From IMG/VR virus record IMGVR_UViG_2585427742_000014: a stretch of 11,352 nucleotides of DNA; one strand, given 5' to 3'. The stretch is from a virus. Its lineage: Duplodnaviria; Heunggongvirae; Uroviricota; Caudoviricetes. Position 1 is the stretch's first letter. Every line of letters begins with the position of its first letter. The notes below the pieces were generated by a model. That model ran no database searches, was not told the DNA's origin, and saw nothing but the letters and a program-made list of their open reading frames with translations. Positions 1 through 11,352 of the stretch are shown here, piece by piece. A program made the translations under genes and the position numbers.

Positions 1-147
1 ATGGCAAAGCCGATCATCACGCTCAATGGCCTAAAAATCGTCATTATGTTGGGAATGCTGGTCATTATTCTCTGCGGTATCCGTTTTGCCGCCGAGATCA
101 TCGTGCCGTTTATTCTCGCATTATTTATTGCTGTTATATATAACTAA
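1..147 (+). pseudogene. tqsA: 48-codon ORF at the window start; N-terminal fragment of an inner-membrane protein resembling the AI-2 exporter TqsA/YdgG family, apparently cut short at the island junction
   Basis: Own translation [48 protein letters not shown], hydrophobic and TM-like. From memory the first ~45 residues match E. coli TqsA, after which the frame diverges and stops. Unverified recall. Confidence 0.4.
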
Positions 148-598: not shown

Positions 599-603
599 AC
601 TCG

Positions 604-885
604 TTAACGCCGTAACCGCTCCGGCTTCTTCCAGTGGTACGTAATTTTCTCCGTTTCCCGATACAGTGCCACGCGGCGATTGTAGGCCAGCATTTCAAGA
701 ACGCGGATCCGTATGTTGCGCATATCCACATCATTAAGCTGGATACCATCACGGCGCATCACCTCAGCAACCACACGCGCGTAATTTTCGGCGGTCACGC
801 TGTCCGGCTGCGTGGCCTGTTCGTCATGCTGCTGGCTGATTCCGGTAACGCGGCGGATTAATCCCAGTAGTTCGGCTTCTGTCAT
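604..885 (-). CDS. Hypothetical protein (~93 aa); credible distal part of the 159-aa ORF 604..1083
   Basis: Internal ATG at 885 preceded by a G-rich stretch. The upstream part of the long ORF runs across the cos site and is low-complexity (FCACPVHGKH...), so the start was trimmed. No family recognised. Confidence 0.4.
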   Translation of the reverse strand: MTEAELLGLIRRVTGISQQHDEQATQPDSVTAENYARVVAEVMRRDGIQLNDVDMRNIRIRVLEMLAYNRRVALYRETEKITYHWKKPERLRR

Positions 886-920
886 TGTGCCCCCATCGCT
901 CTGATAGTCTGGTGTCGTCG

Positions 921-1100
921 GGTCCTTCCTGGAATTATGGCCCGTTACGGGGCGGCGACCTCGCGCGTTTTCACTATTTATGAAAATTTTTCGGGATCCA
1001 TGTCCGGTTTCTCTGCAAGTTAACCATATGAAAAATATAAAAACATGCTTTCCATGAACCGGACATGCGCAAAAAACAGACACTAAAACCGGACATCGAA
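921..1100 (+). other. cos-1: lambda-type cohesive-end site in plus orientation (cosQ-like flank, cosN 950-961 GGGCGGCGACCT, cosB-like region with three R-like elements and an AT-rich spacer)
   Basis: CGTTACG|GGGCGGCGACCT|CGCGCGTTTTCACTATTTATGAAAATTTTTCGG matches the phage lambda cos junction as I recall it (GGTTACG|GGGCGGCGACCT|CGCGGGTTTTCGCTATTTATGAAAATTTTCCGG). Downstream: ATGTCCGGTT at 1000-1009, AT-rich 1011-1050, AACCGGACAT at 1057-1066 and 1087-1096. Confidence 0.75.
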
Positions 1101-1164
1101 CCAGTTAACCGAAAGTGTGCACAAATCACATGCATTGCTGCGAGTGATTAACAAGTTATCGGCT

Positions 1165-1599
1165 TTACTGTTCTGTATCGGCTGATTGCTCCATGCTGGC
1201 ACGGCGAACGCTTATGGCATGACGCCACCCAGCCAGAAAGCCAGCCATTTTATTTCGTGCCTTGCTCACATCTTCCGGTGAATAGCCGTAAATCTGCAAA
1301 CCTTCATCAAATCGATGTTCTGTTTCTTCACTGGAGTACTCGTCACGCTCAGATGAAAGCAGCCTGGCAAACATAATTTTTTCCAGCGCACTGGTTTCTA
1401 CGTGATATCTGATGGTCTCAAGACGGCTTTTACCTGAAGACCAAAGCAATGTATGCCCGATGTGATAACCGCCAGACTTTCCGCGATCCGCATTAAGATA
1501 CGGCATCCCCTGTTTGGTCCATGCGCGAATAGTGGTTCTGTTAACCTTGAAATGTTCAGCTATTTCCTGCTGACTTACAAAACAAGCTTTATCAATCAT
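1165..1599 (-). CDS. Nu1-like small-terminase DNA-binding protein with a divergent C-terminus; candidate packaging-redirection factor (Rpp-like) or island TerS
   Basis: N-terminus VSQQEIAEHFKVNRTTIRAWTKQGMPYL resembles the winged-HTH of lambda gpNu1 (KKQLADIFGASIRTIQNWQEQGMPVL, from memory). At 144 aa it is shorter than Nu1 and the C-terminal half is unrelated. A cos site lies ~90 bp upstream. Confidence 0.7.
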   Translation of the reverse strand: MIDKACFVSQQEIAEHFKVNRTTIRAWTKQGMPYLNADRGKSGGYHIGHTLLWSSGKSRLETIRYHVETSALEKIMFARLLSSERDEYSSEETEHRFDEGLQIYGYSPEDVSKARNKMAGFLAGWRHAISVRRASMEQSADTEQ

Positions 1600-1733
1600 A
1601 ATGTTACCTTAACTGCATGGTTAAATATTAATCAAGTGGTGGTGGTGTCACCTTCACGGAAAAACGTCATAAATAGCGAAAACCCGCGAGGTCGCCGCCC
1701 CGTAACGGGTCCATAATTCCAGGAAGGACCCGT
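1600..1733 (-). other. cos-2: lambda-type cos site in minus orientation (cosN at 1689-1700 as reverse complement), in the lambda-like position immediately upstream of the Nu1-like gene
   Basis: Minus strand reads ACGGGTCCTTCCTGGAATTATGGACCCGTTACG|GGGCGGCGACCT|CGCGGGTTTTCGCTATTTATGACGTTTTTCCGTGAAGG. The 22 nt after cosN are identical to lambda as recalled, and CGTTTTTCCGTG resembles lambda R3. Confidence 0.75.
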
Positions 1734-1755
1734 AAAAAAGCCGGATTTCTCCGGC
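1734..1755 (-). terminator. Rho-independent terminator for the capsid operon (GCCGGA-TTTC-TCCGGC stem-loop followed by T6 on the minus strand)
   Basis: Hairpin 1740-1755 and A6 at 1734-1739 (T6 on the minus strand), 7 nt past the stop of the 1762..2175 ORF. Confidence 0.6.
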
Positions 1756-1761
1756 CTTGTC

Positions 1762-2175
1762 TCAGATGGTTTTCAGTATGCGATCGATGTCGCCGTCATC
1801 GCCCTGGTTTCTGCCATCGTATGCCATGCCAGCTGATACGGCTTGCGGGCTGTGCATGTCCATAAAGTTTTCAAAGGCTGCGGTAAGTTCCGGCGCAACC
1901 TTCGGACGTTCCTGCTCTATGGTCATGCTAAGGATGCTTTTAGCCGTACCAACATCGATACAAGGCACGTTTGCCATTGCACGCAACAGCGGCTGATAGT
2001 CTTTATGCTCATGAAGCGCCATAATCGCATCAGCGCGCGGCTTGTCCTGCTCTTCCAGTTTGTTTAGTTGATATACGGCCTCATAGGTTGATAAACCTCT
2101 GTCAGCCATTGCCCGCGCTTCGGCTTTAAATTTACTCGCCAGCGGTAGCGTCATGATGCTTTCATTCGTTGCCAT
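1762..2175 (-). CDS. Hypothetical protein (137 aa), last gene of the capsid operon
   Basis: ORF track; sits 12 nt downstream of the gpD-like gene and just before the terminator. No family recognised. Confidence 0.55.
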   Translation of the reverse strand: MATNESIMTLPLASKFKAEARAMADRGLSTYEAVYQLNKLEEQDKPRADAIMALHEHKDYQPLLRAMANVPCIDVGTAKSILSMTIEQERPKVAPELTAAFENFMDMHSPQAVSAGMAYDGRNQGDDGDIDRILKTI

Positions 2176-2187
2176 CGTTCCCCCTGC

Positions 2188-2523
2188 TTATCGGGCCAGC
2201 GGCTGAACGGATACGCCGGAACCCGCAAAGGCGGCGCATTTTTTCGCATCGGTGTCGACGCTCTCAGGCCAGTTAACGGCGGCAATATTGAATATCCCCG
2301 TCTTGTAACACTGTGCTGATTTCTGCTTTGACGTGTCCACAGGGTACGAGGTCAGATAAACAGCCTTGCCAGATTCCTTACCATCCCACGGCTTAAACTC
2401 GCCATTGTCCGCCAGCATCAGCGGGGTAAATTCCTGAATAACGCCAGCATCAGCGGCAAAATGTACCAGCGTCGTGGCGACCTGCTGACTGCCTGCAAAT
2501 AACTCAATGTATGGAGTGTCCAT
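2188..2523 (-). CDS. Head decoration protein, lambda gpD-like
   Basis: 111 aa; TPLMLADNGEFKPWDGKESGKAV...CYKTGIFNIAAVNWPESVDTDAKKCAAFAGSGVSVQ parallels lambda gpD (TPLMLDTSSRKLVAWDG...[36 protein letters not shown], from memory). Lies directly downstream of the capsid gene. Confidence 0.8.
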   Translation of the reverse strand: MDTPYIELFAGSQQVATTLVHFAADAGVIQEFTPLMLADNGEFKPWDGKESGKAVYLTSYPVDTSKQKSAQCYKTGIFNIAAVNWPESVDTDAKKCAAFAGSGVSVQPLAR

Positions 2524-2534
2524 AGAATCCCCCG

Positions 2535-3590
2535 TTAACCAATTTTGACGGTAACAAATTTGCGAATATCTGCCGGAACCGGCTGCGGTGCGCTGTGCGT
2601 CTGCACGTACTCAATCGCCGGATCGCCGTCCTCAATCCAGTTTTTCGGGTAAAACATGTTTTGCGTTGCGCCCGTTCTTACTGCGTCCTGATCCATAATC
2701 GCACCATAGGCCACCAGCCCTTTATTGTTGGTGTTGCCCAGAACCAGCAAATCAGGCTCAAGGAAATATTTTTCTGTGCCGTCGCTGTCAGTGTATTTGC
2801 CGGAATAGACGATAAGGGCAATATCGCCCAGATAGCCTTTAAAGCTCACCACTTCGCCCAGGTTTTTACAGGCCAGCTCTGCGGCGGACTCTGAACCACG
2901 GGAAAGATCGTACAGCTCACGGAATTTTTTAAAGCTGCGTAACGTTCGCCATACCTCAGCGCCCATAATCATGACGTTTGCGGGGCAACCAGCCTGATCA
3001 GCATAAAGCTCGATGTCATAGATTGGGTCGTGCATGTCTTTATCCTGCTCGGACCATTTTTTACCCTTGGCCTGCTCTATGATGCAGTTTTCCGGTATTT
3101 TCCAGTCGATTTCATAGCGTTCTATGCCTTCGCCCTCAATGATGTTTTTTCCGGTCGTTACCGCATTCACCGCCAGCCATTCCACGCGTGCCTTAATGGC
3201 GTTTATCTGGCGGCGCATGTTGCCAGTAATCAGGCGCATACGGCGATAGGTAGGGTCGTTAAGCTGTGCCGGATCTTCTCCAGCCATGCGCATGATGGTT
3301 TTCGTTGGATCGATTTCGTGCTTTGGCTTCATGTAGCCAGGTTTGATTGTGCTGGTTTCGTACCCTTTATCGCGCTGAACCTGGCTACCCACCATAGGCG
3401 AACAAAACGCCGACATGGTGACTTCTTCAATGTCCAGGGTATCCAGCATGATGTTTTGCGTGCTGAATGTCGCCACGTTCGGGAAAAACAGCGTGGTAAA
3501 CAGAGGGCTGAATTTAAAATCCGCAATATCCCCGCGATTCAGGTACATGAAAAGCTGGTTAGTGTTAAGTGCCGTTGCTTTGCCTGCCAT
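2535..3590 (-). CDS. Major capsid protein, lambda gpE family
   Basis: 351 aa; shared motifs with lambda gpE as recalled: DFKFSPLF / KFKFDPLF, PGYMKPKHEI / PGYVKPKHEV, DPTYRRMRLI / DPAYRRRRII, YPKNWIEDGDPAIEY / YPKNWVTTGDPAREF. GGGGG-type RBS 6 nt upstream. Confidence 0.9.
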   Translation of the reverse strand: MAGKATALNTNQLFMYLNRGDIADFKFSPLFTTLFFPNVATFSTQNIMLDTLDIEEVTMSAFCSPMVGSQVQRDKGYETSTIKPGYMKPKHEIDPTKTIMRMAGEDPAQLNDPTYRRMRLITGNMRRQINAIKARVEWLAVNAVTTGKNIIEGEGIERYEIDWKIPENCIIEQAKGKKWSEQDKDMHDPIYDIELYADQAGCPANVMIMGAEVWRTLRSFKKFRELYDLSRGSESAAELACKNLGEVVSFKGYLGDIALIVYSGKYTDSDGTEKYFLEPDLLVLGNTNNKGLVAYGAIMDQDAVRTGATQNMFYPKNWIEDGDPAIEYVQTHSAPQPVPADIRKFVTVKIG

Positions 3591-3796
3591 TATTCACCCC
3601 CATAATTTTTATGCATCCCAAGCGCCGCAAGTAAATAAGAGCGTACAAGTGAACCTATCGACGGCTCCGGCGTCATCAGCGGATCCAGTCCAGCCGCCAC
3701 GCCAGCCTCATAGTTTTTTTTGTGGCGCTGCTTGAGCACCTCCACGATTTCGGGGCTTATGTACACCGAAACACCGCCTTTTTTCTCTTCAGCCAT
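3590..3796 (-). CDS. Hypothetical small protein (68 aa), first gene of the capsid operon, translationally coupled to the capsid gene
   Basis: Stop overlaps the capsid ATG (TAATG); AGAGGAA-type RBS upstream. No family recognised. Confidence 0.5.
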   Translation of the reverse strand: MAEEKKGGVSVYISPEIVEVLKQRHKKNYEAGVAAGLDPLMTPEPSIGSLVRSYLLAALGMHKNYGGE

Positions 3797-3961
3797 AGTA
3801 AGAAATTCCTCTTCGACTTAAAAAATCATAACTGGATGTTCATCCAGCTCTGATTATAATCATGATTGCATTTTGTGCAATGATATTGAGTTGTGTTGCA
3901 AATTATGAAATGATGATCCCGATCATGTGTGTCAGTGCACCAAAAAGCCTCATATGCAAAA

Positions 3962-3998
3962 GCCCGATAAGCCACCTCTGACCTTATCGGGCTTTTTT
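3962..3998 (+). terminator. Terminator-like hairpin (GCCCGATAAG / CTTATCGGGC stem, 11-nt loop, T6 on the plus strand) in the capsid-operon upstream region
   Basis: 10-bp perfect stem at 3962-3971 / 3983-3992 followed by TTTTTT at 3993-3998. No plus-strand ORF lies upstream; only 4 U would follow on the minus strand. Confidence 0.5.
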
Positions 3999-4099
3999 AT
4001 CTGCCTGCAAAGATGTCGAACAAAAATTAACCACAACCATCATCTTTTTTGCATCAAAACAATTAAAAACAATAAATTACGCTCATGATGATGATGACG

Positions 4100-4173
4100 A
4101 TAAAATCACAAAAATGCGCTTTTTTCCGCGCCTCCCGCCCCGTGTTCAGCCCCCCCCCGCCAGGAGGACCCGT
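4100..4173 (-). other. Degenerate cos-like remnant (cosQ-like GGACCCGT flank plus ACGGGGCGG, no intact cosN)
   Basis: Minus strand reads CGGGTCCTCCTGGCGGGGGGGGGCTGAACACGGGGCGGGAGGCGCGGAAAAAAGCGCATTTTTGTGA, versus cos-2 CGGGTCCTTCCTGG...ACGGGGCGGCGACCTCGCGGGTTTTCGCTATTTATGA. Partial similarity only. Confidence 0.3.
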
Positions 4174-4195
4174 AAAAAAGCCGGATTGCTCCGGC
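4174..4195 (-). terminator. Rho-independent terminator for the SSB operon; near-identical copy of the 1734-1755 terminator
   Basis: GCCGGA-TTGC-TCCGGC at 4180-4195 plus A6 at 4174-4179 (T6 on the minus strand), 17 nt past the SSB stop. The flanking ~40 bp is shared with 1719-1760. Confidence 0.6.
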
Positions 4196-4211
4196 TTCTG
4201 TCACTCGTCGC

Positions 4212-7924: not shown

Positions 7925-8382
7925 AAGCCTACCCCCTGACGAATACGGGCGACAAAAATCAGATGTGCGTGCGGCAGCTGTGCACGTGCTTCGCGCTCAG
8001 TGGCAGCGGTAACGGTGAATATTGCAATGCTGTCTGTCAGGCACTGCATAAAGCGCCAGACAAAATAAGGGCGTGCGGATACAGCCATGTGAAAGGCTCC
8101 CAGATGAATTTTAAGGAGTCTCGCTACTACGCTGTCAAACATGGTGGCGAGACGTAACAGGGTTGACAGACTGGTCATCTGGAAACCAGCGAGCACAAAG
8201 GCTCCCCCGTTACGCCCCGCCATAATGCGGGTATGGGTAGGTTTACGGACACAAAAAAACCGCTTATCGGATGTGGGCGGCTGTCCGCCAGATGTATTCA
8301 GGCTGTCAAACCCGGTCGCCATGTGGGCGACGGGGGAAGCATACAGCCCCGTGATAATTTTTTGCAAGCGGTTTTTACGCAT
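7921..8382 (-). CDS. Small protein, paralog 1, with a C-terminal motif shared with 8375..8578 (Icd-like/Ash-like small-protein type; start uncertain, alternative ATG at 8088)
   Basis: C-terminus YFVWRF...TAATEREARAQLPHAHLIFVARIRQG parallels the downstream paralog. The ATG at 8382 overlaps the upstream stop (ATGCGTAA) with AGGGG 7 nt upstream; the alternative ATG at 8088 has GGAG 8 nt upstream. Confidence 0.45.
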   Translation of the reverse strand: MRKNRLQKIITGLYASPVAHMATGFDSLNTSGGQPPTSDKRFFCVRKPTHTRIMAGRNGGAFVLAGFQMTSLSTLLRLATMFDSVVARLLKIHLGAFHMAVSARPYFVWRFMQCLTDSIAIFTVTAATEREARAQLPHAHLIFVARIRQGVGL

Positions 8383-9580: not shown

Positions 9581-9850
9581 TTAATGAACTGCCTTGCAGC
9601 TATCCTTCCAGGCCAGAACCTCGGATAAAGACCAGCCAACGGAACGACCGCCAAGTTTACGACGTGATGGGAATTGTCCGGCCTTTTCCAGGCGGTAGCG
9701 ACACGTACGGCTAAGGCCGGTTAGTTTTTCGCATTCTTTTTCACGTATAAACCGATCAGTGCTTAACACTATTGCCCCCCTTTCGTTTCTTAAAGAGTCA
9801 TCAGGTGTCTTATTGTGTCGTATTGTTCCCGCTAGAGTGATGAATGGCAA
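9581..9850 (-). CDS. alpA: AlpA-family phage transcriptional regulator (MerR-like HTH)
   Basis: 89 aa; EKLTGLSRTCRYRLEKAGQFPSRRKLGGRSVGWSLSEVLAW matches the AlpA / CP4-57 regulatory protein signature as recalled; adjacent to the integrase. Confidence 0.85.
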   Translation of the reverse strand: MPFITLAGTIRHNKTPDDSLRNERGAIVLSTDRFIREKECEKLTGLSRTCRYRLEKAGQFPSRRKLGGRSVGWSLSEVLAWKDSCKAVH

Positions 9851-10134: not shown

Positions 10135-11352
10135 TTATTTTCTTCTGGCTACGGGTAGCGTGGTTACGTTTTCATGTGTTCCCGCCAGTATCCCTAACCG
10201 CTCCGTCCACATATCCAGCGCATTGCGTTTCGCATCCAGATAACGGGAATGATTATAAACTCGCTGCATTCCTGGCATCTGGTGGCCTGTAAGCTGCTCC
10301 ACGACATGCGGATCAACGCCTAAATCGTTCAGCATGGTTGTAAAGGTGCGCCGGATGTCATGCAGTGACCAGTGAGGGTGATTAAGCCTCCTGTGCGCTA
10401 ATCTTCCATACTGCGATACGCTGGCCTCCTGTTTCACTTCCCCCAGCAATAAGCCCGTGTGCCTGTTCTGCTCCACCAGCTGCGTGACGAACGGCAGGAT
10501 CGCTTCCGGTATGGGCCGGAATATTGCGACCTTCGTTTTGCTGTGCTCCTTCGGAACGGTCCATAGCATTTCCGTAAAATCCCACTCCCCGATCTCCGAT
10601 AACCTCAGTTCTACCGTTCTGGCTCCGAAGACAATCAGGAGGCGGATTAACGCGACGTAGTAAGGGGAGAATATTTTTTTGTCCAGTGCCTGCAATAATT
10701 CGCCAAGTTCTTTGTTACTTAAGACACGTTCGCTTATATCCGGTTTTTTCCCAACGTCCGCCACGTTCAGATCGTCCAGAACGTTGCTGATTGCATAGCG
10801 CCGCCTACGGCAGAACTTAAGCGCCTGTTTGCACGCCTGTAGCACGAATCCGGCAGTAACAGGCGTTCGCTTTGCCACCTGGTCAAAACAGGCCAGCCAG
10901 TGCCGTAGCTCGCATTTATCCAGCGGCATAGCACCAATCTGCTGTATTACGTGATTATTAAGTCGCCTTTTCAGGGCGATATAATCCACGCGGTTTTCCT
11001 TTACGTAATACTCAAGCCAGTAGGTGAGCGCATCGCCAACCGTTACGGGCTTTAACGCTTCCTGTACGGTGTAATTCATCTCATGACGTGGATTTTTCCC
11101 CTCAGCCAGCCATGTGCGACACTGTGCGGCTTTTTCCCTGGCTGCTTTCAGGCTCAGATCAGGATAACTTCCCAGCTTAATGCGTTCGGGTCGTGTCTCC
11201 CTTCCCGTTCCGGCCCTGTATGTGAAATACCAGGTCAATTTCCCTGATGTTAAATATTTCACGCTCAGGTTTCCGCCATCACTATAAAACGTGTTTTTCT
11301 CCGCTGGCTTACCATGAAGTTTCCTTAGCAAGGTATCGCTCAGTTTGTTCAT
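10135..11352 (-). CDS. int: Tyrosine site-specific integrase, P4 / CP4-57 type
   Basis: 405 aa; N-terminal arm-binding-like region (LSDTLLRKLHGKPAEKNTFYSDGGNLSVKY), catalytic-region motifs HDIRRT and RVYNHS. The start codon sits at the window edge. Confidence 0.9.
   Translation of the reverse strand: MNKLSDTLLRKLHGKPAEKNTFYSDGGNLSVKYLTSGKLTWYFTYRAGTGRETRPERIKLGSYPDLSLKAAREKAAQCRTWLAEGKNPRHEMNYTVQEALKPVTVGDALTYWLEYYVKENRVDYIALKRRLNNHVIQQIGAMPLDKCELRHWLACFDQVAKRTPVTAGFVLQACKQALKFCRRRRYAISNVLDDLNVADVGKKPDISERVLSNKELGELLQALDKKIFSPYYVALIRLLIVFGARTVELRLSEIGEWDFTEMLWTVPKEHSKTKVAIFRPIPEAILPFVTQLVEQNRHTGLLLGEVKQEASVSQYGRLAHRRLNHPHWSLHDIRRTFTTMLNDLGVDPHVVEQLTGHQMPGMQRVYNHSRYLDAKRNALDMWTERLGILAGTHENVTTLPVARRK

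Follow-up and report, generated by a model that had tools for sequence, protein, structure and literature searches.

A lambda-type capsid and decoration operon with a scaffold-like partner in the late zone of an EcCICFT073-type phage-inducible chromosomal island

The DNA analysed here, referred to below as the window, is a stretch of 11,352 nucleotides catalogued as a tailed virus (Caudoviricetes; IMG/VR record IMGVR_UViG_2585427742_000014). Four open reading frames (ORFs) on its minus strand, between positions 1762 and 3796, encode a 68-amino-acid (68-aa) protein, a major capsid protein (MCP) of the lambda gpE type, a head decoration protein of the gpD type and a 137-aa protein (Table 1). The genes are closely packed: the stop codon of the 68-aa gene and the start codon of the MCP gene overlap by 1 nt, and the next two gaps measure 11 nt and 12 nt. 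Plus-strand ORFs within the interval are shadows, since the hidden Markov model (HMM) matches and the codon-level constraint all fall in minus-strand frames. The region is the head-shell operon of a classical Gram-negative phage-inducible chromosomal island (PICI) of the EcCICFT073 type and lies in the late zone of that island; the assignment of the island to the PICIs is near certain.

The MCP is a member of the gpE family with the HK97 fold. It matches Pfam PF03864 (Phage_cap_E) over its full length (2.6e-50; 171.8 bits, against a gathering cut-off of 22.9), is 43% identical to lambda gpE over 327 aa, and aligns with PDB entry 3BQW at 769 bits and 96% identity. The sequence of 3BQW, an entry titled "putative capsid protein of prophage," is that of c1499, the CFT073 orthologue, and from this crystal the island MCP is a properly folded protein. 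The decoration protein belongs to the gpD family by its match to PF02924 (HDPD; 2.5e-17; 63.5 bits, cut-off 29.1); it is 36% identical to lambda gpD, matches PDB entry 1TD0 (5.6e-13), and shows 0 differences from c1500, with which it shares accession WP_000380877.1. Coordinates, Pfam matches and the identities with lambda confirm a preliminary description of this DNA, which had placed gpE-like and gpD-like genes in a compact minus-strand operon bounded by terminators; both terminators are present, and the capsid-then-decoration order that it reported was found here and in all 11 related islands examined.

The operon resides in an Escherichia coli chromosomal island that splits tqsA, the autoinducer 2 (AI-2) transporter gene; the 5' tqsA fragment occupies window positions 1 to 147, and the remainder lies just past the integrase gene. 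The window matches E. coli strain 300033 at 100%. Direct repeats of 27 nt (att), situated 11,178 bp apart, form the ends of the island, which is therefore 11.18 kb in size. The window holds a near-complete copy, short of just the final 12 nt of int and the repeat at the right-hand end. Normal chromosomal DNA adjoins the island, with ydgV and mdtJ at one end and pntB at the other. Because the island ends fall at the window limits and the neighbours are chromosomal, there are no head genes outside the window, a point that the preliminary description had wished to see checked.

Read along the minus strand, the gene order is integrase, AlpA-like regulator, a block of small "Icd-like" ORFs, a DUF4222 protein, a D5-type primase, a 92-aa protein, a single-stranded DNA-binding protein (SSB), the four shell-operon genes, a 144-aa helix-turn-helix protein, and a 93-aa protein; the DUF4222 protein, the D5_N/DUF5906 primase and the SSB were identified with Pfam. 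The island thus has an integrase at one end with an att site and flanking direct repeats, alpA followed by a unidirectional primase/replication module, helper-type cos sites with Rpp but no TerL, and a size within the range of ~10-15 kb with no lysis or tail genes, as expected of a Gram-negative PICI. Across all island ORFs, neither Pfam nor PHROGs returned a match to portal, prohead protease, TerL, connector, tail or lysis families, which bears out the earlier view of a satellite devoid of portal, protease, TerL and tail genes. By the same searches, the island lacks the portal, prohead protease, head-tail connectors and TerL of a capsid-forming PICI, and no PHROG or Pfam match was obtained to the Sid, Psu, delta and alpha primase set of P4-like satellites.

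Table 1. Coordinates of the features discussed in the text (window numbering)
Feature	Position	Strand	Details
93-aa protein, conserved	604-885	-	phrog_1561; beyond second cos site
Second exact cosN	950..961	+	Opposite in orientation to the first site; both face rpp
RppA, 144 aa, c1503 orthologue	1165..1599	-	2/144 differences from CFT073 RppA
Lambda cosN, exact	1689..1700	-	GGGCGGCGACCT; same orientation as lambda cos-Nu1, rpp taking the place of Nu1
Intrinsic terminator of shell operon	1725..1757	-	GCCGGAGAAATCCGGC + U6; -16.6 kcal/mol; directly 3' of the 137-aa stop codon
137-aa protein, c1501 orthologue	1762..2175	-	Scaffold-like; no protease domain
Head decoration protein, 111 aa	2188..2523	-	Lambda gpD family
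Major capsid protein (MCP), 351 aa	2535..3590	-	Lambda gpE family, HK97 fold; c1499 orthologue
68-aa protein	3590..3796	-	phrog_3255, 8.5e-46; position of CFT073 c1498
Predicted promoter/operator of shell operon	3815..3915	-	TTGCAC-16 nt-TATAAT; upstream of 68-aa gene
Strong hairpin + U-run	3940..4000 (hairpin ~3953-3996)	-	-23.4 kcal/mol; 0/200 shuffles fold equally well
AlpA-like regulator	9581-9850		phrog_2790, 8e-18
Tyrosine integrase	10135-11352	+	phrog_1, 9.4e-71

The closest characterized relative is EcCICFT073, the prototype Gram-negative PICI, which was taken for comparison from NC_004431.1 (positions 1377930-1388700). The two islands share gene order and content from the primase through the 93-aa gene, and window positions 603-3998 are 95.8% identical to the CFT073 island in nucleotide sequence. 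At the protein level, the MCP differs from c1499 at 14 of 351 positions and the 137-aa protein from c1501 at 3 (98% identity), and RppA is 99% identical. The islands differ in that EcCICFT073 sits in the roxA-phoQ interval whereas this one sits in tqsA, and their int regions are ~86% identical in DNA. EcCICFT073 also carries perC between the SSB gene and the shell operon; the corresponding part of the window (3797-4211) has no perC-family regulator gene, which is found at that position in EcCICFT073 and in the RM13516 island. The names given to the prototype genes are putative capsid protein for c1499 and head decoration protein for c1500 (Fillol-Salom 2018, PMC6092414). The capsid and decoration genes of EcCICFT073-type PICIs have already been published, crystallised and knocked out, and the finding as stated in the preliminary description was therefore already known. 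What is new here is the Nu3-type likeness of c1501, the purifying selection on all four genes, the separate clade of PICI MCPs, and the prevalence of the capsid-decoration pair.

The 137-aa protein is homologous to the C-terminal domain of Nu3/gpC, that is, to the region that follows the protease in S49 prohead proteases. It matched the extreme C-terminal part (positions 495-567 of 583) of phrog_53, a family of head maturation proteases (5e-9), and a tblastn search of 50,697 phage records gave as its sole match the Nu3 region of PhiR12-type lambdoid phages (5e-5). In BLASTP, it was 37% identical (4e-10) to residues 416-493 of a 501-aa gpC/Nu3 protein of the PhiR12 type, and an HMM of its family scored 43-51 bits against four 21-type gpC proteins, one of them from a CFT073 prophage. 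The protein consists of two copies of a repeat of ~40 aa and a tail, FxxFMxxHSPxAV, the same arrangement that stands behind the catalytic domain of 21-type S49 prohead proteases. In lambdoid phages, the post-protease region of gpC/Nu3 is the scaffold and delivery part. A more distant island encodes, in the same position, a protein of 141 aa that is 28% identical and whose match lies in that part of a gpC-type S49 protease encoded by a prophage with a related embedded island.

The family itself is narrow: an exhaustive HMMER search with the 137-aa protein returned 8 hits only, and its protease-fused relatives were not reached at library-wide E-values. No similarity was detected to lambda Nu3, which is too diverged to match. 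The AlphaFold2 (AF2) model is all helical and of low confidence (predicted local distance difference test [pLDDT] score, 49). On the strength of these sequence matches, c1501 and its orthologue here would be a stand-alone Nu3-type scaffold domain with a putative function in scaffolding, an assignment of which we found no mention in the searchable literature. The preliminary description had listed a scaffold among the missing genes, and the likeness of the 137-aa protein to the scaffold part of 21-type gpC makes that statement doubtful. It had further suggested that both small flanking genes might encode size-determination or scaffold-like factors; this holds for the 137-aa protein as regards scaffold likeness. 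The pattern of the 68-aa protein is ribbon-helix-helix (RHH)-like.

We take the 68-aa protein to be c1498 from its position and not from the gene table. Its AF2 model (pLDDT, 73) shows an extended strand followed by two helices (residues 15-34 and 47-58), and from the sequence pattern and this secondary structure it is predicted to be an RHH-like, strand-helix-helix protein. A fold search with the model gave no significant match, and no similarity to lambda gpW was seen. The gene is also a hot spot of divergence: the protein is 68% identical to its CFT073 copy, compared with 96% for the adjacent MCP and 100% for the decoration protein. Since dN/dS is still 0.39, this pattern suggests a recombinational swap rather than relaxed selection. 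NCBIfam and PADLOC had no match for any of the four shell-operon proteins; that the 68-aa and 137-aa ORFs are real genes follows from their PHROG families, their conservation in relatives, and dN/dS values below 0.5.

Pairwise Nei-Gojobori comparisons of up to nine islands gave dN/dS values of 0.06-0.19 for the MCP, 0.06-0.29 for the decoration protein, 0.21-0.47 for the 137-aa protein and 0.19-0.39 for the 68-aa protein, and all four genes are intact in every island examined. The four shell genes are under purifying selection and are not decaying. Furthermore, divergence between islands runs in parallel for the MCP, the decoration protein and the scaffold-like protein.

The capsid-decoration pair is present in 617 of 5426 complete E. 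coli genomes (~11%), nearly always at 90% nucleotide identity or above. A search for related loci with the MCP in genome contigs found nothing, and contexts were taken instead from the contigs that encode MCP homologues. Genomic context was read for seven such homologues (51-87% identity) from E. coli, Salmonella, Serratia and Edwardsiella; all seven lie in a PICI-like element, with capsid followed by decoration gene and never together with a portal or protease gene. The islands that carry the pair vary in integrase, in replicase (D5 primase, AAA_25 helicase or DUF927) and in packaging gene (Rpp or a Nu1-type TerS). A neighbour-joining tree places the PICI MCPs in a single clade, with the gpE clade of lambdoid phages as its sister; within the tree set, identity is at least 49% among PICIs and at most 48% to any phage, and a search of the phage collection yielded no phage MCP with more than 47% identity to the island MCP. 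The separate clade and the low identity to phages argue against recent capture of the core pair from helpers. Judged by these comparisons, the PICI capsid-decoration pair is an old, satellite-specific lineage.

Related islands occupy chromosomal sites (tqsA, the roxA-phoQ interval, and a site beside fis) as well as helper prophages, where we found them in the capsid gene E (locus L010, 1511-13073), in the portal gene (L016, 1-11681) and in the terminase region (L013, 236-13543). Elements of the latter kind are the helper-embedded PICIs of PMC10111431. In Salmonella GCA_005980655.1, a PICI with a gpE-type MCP and a decoration gene (L014, 3292-12978) is inserted in a P2-like prophage, with the tail-fibre and tail-tube genes on either side. 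The capsid of that host prophage would itself belong to another family, which would be odd for a back-up copy.

The shell operon appears to have its own control DNA. The predicted promoter upstream of the 68-aa gene has a palindrome, ATTGCA-N5-TGCAAT, over its -35 element and a hairpin, CTGGATGAACATCCAG, right after its -10 element (-13.4 kcal/mol; z, -3.7). In an alignment of seven islands, including those with MCPs just 63-68% identical, the 3815-3915 DNA is almost invariant, and across distant islands this intergenic DNA is better conserved than coding sequence; its conservation suggests that the operon has its own conserved regulation. The hairpin after the -10 element contains CTG-N10-CAG and agrees with the LexA consensus at 12 of 20 positions by hand count, a weak look-alike of a LexA box. 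A reading of promoter and hairpin as a Q-antitermination unit (pR'-qut-tR') was considered, found no evidence and is speculation only. The strong hairpin further upstream closes the replication module (primase, 92-aa protein and SSB) and is kept in CFT073 and in two further related loci (L011 and L012).

Downstream, the operon terminator is fused to a cosQ-like element, ACGGGTCCT, and the first cosN site follows directly after the terminator. The flanks of this site are cosQ-like and left-end-like, with a match to the left end of lambda, CGCGGGTTTTCGCTATTTATGA. After the SSB gene, at window positions 4127-4195 of the minus strand, the operon terminator with the cosQ-like ACGGGTCCT recurs as a 31-nt segment at 97% identity, adjoined by a degenerate cosN-like sequence, GGGCGGGAGGCG; together these may be a decayed third cos site. 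The convergent arrangement of two cosN sites likewise occurs in CFT073, and EcCICFT073 has two functional cos sites (PMC6092414). The 144-aa RppA, which redirects the helper TerS to the island cos site (PMC6739421), matches the solved structure of RppC (PDB 6HLK, 4.5e-31). Four copies of the island amount to 44.7 kb (4 × 11.18 kb), ~92% of the lambda genome, in keeping with the drop in transfer reported on enlargement with tetA. The 93-aa protein had no match in Pfam, NCBIfam or PADLOC.

EcCICFT073 is the only island of this type for which experiments have shown helper-driven induction, replication and transfer at high frequency (PMC6092414). From the published work on that prototype, a lambdoid helper would induce the island through AlpA, the island would replicate, RppA and the helper TerS would retarget the helper terminase to the island cos site, and island DNA would be packaged as multimers into full-size heads. 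We propose that the MCP, the decoration protein and the Nu3-type domain would form a working, co-evolving set that builds or joins proheads nucleated on the helper portal. This set would act as a supplementary or back-up supply of subunits, redundant with lambda, phi80 and CFT073 phage 4 and of benefit with other helpers or under other conditions, such as in embedded islands that interrupt gene E or with helpers whose capsid genes are defective or limiting. A PICI shell operon with such a supply role is our best overall explanation, about as apt to prove wrong as right when taken whole, its functional part being much less certain than the identity of the operon.

Several observations weigh against a supply role. 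When either c1499 or c1500 was deleted, the resident helper transferred the island as before (titres differed by no more than about two-fold) and lambda was still subject to interference; an island carrying c1499::cat was transferred at high frequency (PMC6092414). When the genes after ori were expressed singly, only c1503 (RppA) inhibited lambda (Fillol-Salom 2019, PMC6739421). Co-assembly with helper subunits is also uncertain, since the island MCP is only 43-48% identical to helper-type gpE, and the island lies in tqsA and is not helper-embedded. It was suspected that all of the published marked islands (c1501::tetA and c1499::cat) had a broken shell module; this was rejected for the tetA island, because the primer arms in Table S6 of PMC6092414 place tetA just after the c1501 stop codon, so that the module is intact. 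The published EcCICFT073 tetA marker falls exactly at the position of the operon terminator (the equivalent of 1725..1757).

The trio could serve as a kit with which a classical PICI brings its own shell, so that satellite-encoded heads are assembled on a portal taken from the helper regardless of the condition or kind of the helper capsid genes; islands that interrupt gene E, or that lie in P2-like prophages such as that of L014, could be examples. The knock-outs would have missed such a role because the three helpers tested supply compatible capsids. We consider this role unlikely; if true, it would place such islands functionally midway between the classical and the capsid-forming PICIs. 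It is rather improbable that the genes are a back-up for helper-embedded life that replaces the helper E product (and D or Nu3) and rides as a passenger in chromosomal islands like this one. An island does lie within prophage gene E (L010), and the 2023 study of helper-embedded PICIs counts 201 such cases and raises the possibility that PICIs acquire late genes from helpers and use them as back-up copies; it also reports a capsid gene in 21 of 29 reference Gram-negative PICIs that is not required for transfer (PMC10111431). The pair, however, is equally intact and constrained in islands in a portal gene, a terminase region, a P2-like tail region and chromosomal sites, and the MCP is <48% identical to helper gpE.

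The preliminary description had reasoned that an island supplying only shell and decoration proteins must co-assemble with helper proteins and so remodel the capsid or exclude the helper MCP. Under remodelling, the island MCP, decoration and scaffold proteins would either form small, island-sized capsids on the portal of the helper or take the place of its MCP, to the benefit of the island and at the cost of the helper. Precedents exist in SaPIbov5 Ccm, an MCP homologue that redirects capsid size, and in PmCI172, which has an MCP homologue and makes small capsids; moreover, the island has both shell and scaffold-like proteins, and only three helpers were tested with the prototype. The claim is nevertheless not supported, because the c1499 and c1500 deletions changed neither transfer nor interference with lambda, and with lambda as helper all packaged DNA was phage-sized (PMC6092414). 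An island of one quarter of a lambdoid genome, whose transfer was lowered by the ~1-2 kb that tetA adds, fits multimers in full-size heads, and deletion of c1503 (rppA) alone fully restored lambda plaques (PMC6739421). We judge remodelling to be decidedly improbable. The rppA result argues equally against a decoy or defence function, in which the shell proteins would poison capsid assembly of competing non-helper lambdoid phages, as does the finding that the singly expressed genes other than rppA spare lambda plaques; PADLOC likewise lacked a match for the four proteins. Satellites commonly carry interference functions in this zone, and a free Nu3-type domain could act inside the shell as a competitor of the phage protease/scaffold, but we hold a decoy function to be very unlikely. 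Finally, the operon could be a nonfunctional leftover of lambdoid head genes that were captured or have degraded, as the lack of a knock-out phenotype and the proposed capture of helper late genes by PICIs might suggest. The selection analysis largely refutes this reading, which we regard as barely credible: the capsid and decoration genes are strongly constrained, all copies are full length, the pair occurs in 617 genomes, and the clade covers several genera and has its own gene order. A degraded lambdoid prophage, the alternative named in the preliminary description, is likewise contradicted by the absence of other late-gene remnants, the intact ORFs, and dN/dS values of 0.06-0.47.

The residual interest of the operon, for which a supplementary or back-up supply of shell subunits is our preferred reading, lies in the selective maintenance of a module that has no laboratory phenotype in ~11% of complete E. 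coli genomes and in several enterobacterial genera, and in the Nu3-type assignment of c1501. With c1501 as a putative Nu3-type scaffold domain, the shell set becomes a plausible minimal shell-building kit, and rescue of E-, D- or Nu3-defective helpers by such a kit, if true, would blur the line between classical and capsid-forming satellites.

Elsewhere in the island, the "Icd-like" ORF block contains a C4/CI-type antisense immunity RNA (RF01695, 72.6 bits; window 8140-8227, minus strand) and its a1/b1 target (RF03163; window 8295-8344, minus strand), which constitute a P4/P1-style RNA immunity system in a PICI. Matches to this RNA have been reported in some Gram-negative PICIs (PMC10111431).

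This immunity RNA is the sole feature that the island has in common with P4 itself; neither a Psu nor a Sid homologue was detected in the island with Pfam or PHROGs. What SaPIbov5 Ccm and P4 Psu and Sid have in common with the island proteins is that satellites encode them and that they are homologous or analogous to capsid shell, decoration or scaffold proteins. Ccm and Sid, however, demonstrably redirect capsid size, whereas the EcCICFT073 orthologues of the island genes do not, at least with lambda. The heads of lambda, phage 21 and PhiR12-type phages have a homologous MCP (43-47% identity) and decoration protein (36%), and the 21-type heads also share the Nu3-region repeats. Unlike lambda, in which the head genes run Nu3-D-E, the island has the order E-D-Nu3', and its scaffold domain is free-standing, whereas the lambda-type scaffold is nested in the protease gene. 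The capsid-forming PICIs (EcCIEDL933; Alqurainy 2023) resemble this island in the int-alpA-primase type of backbone and in encoding a satellite capsid protein. They carry a complete head and packaging set of portal, protease, connectors, HNH, TerS and TerL and make their own small capsids; in this island, by contrast, the set is limited to a shell protein, a decoration protein and a scaffold-like domain.

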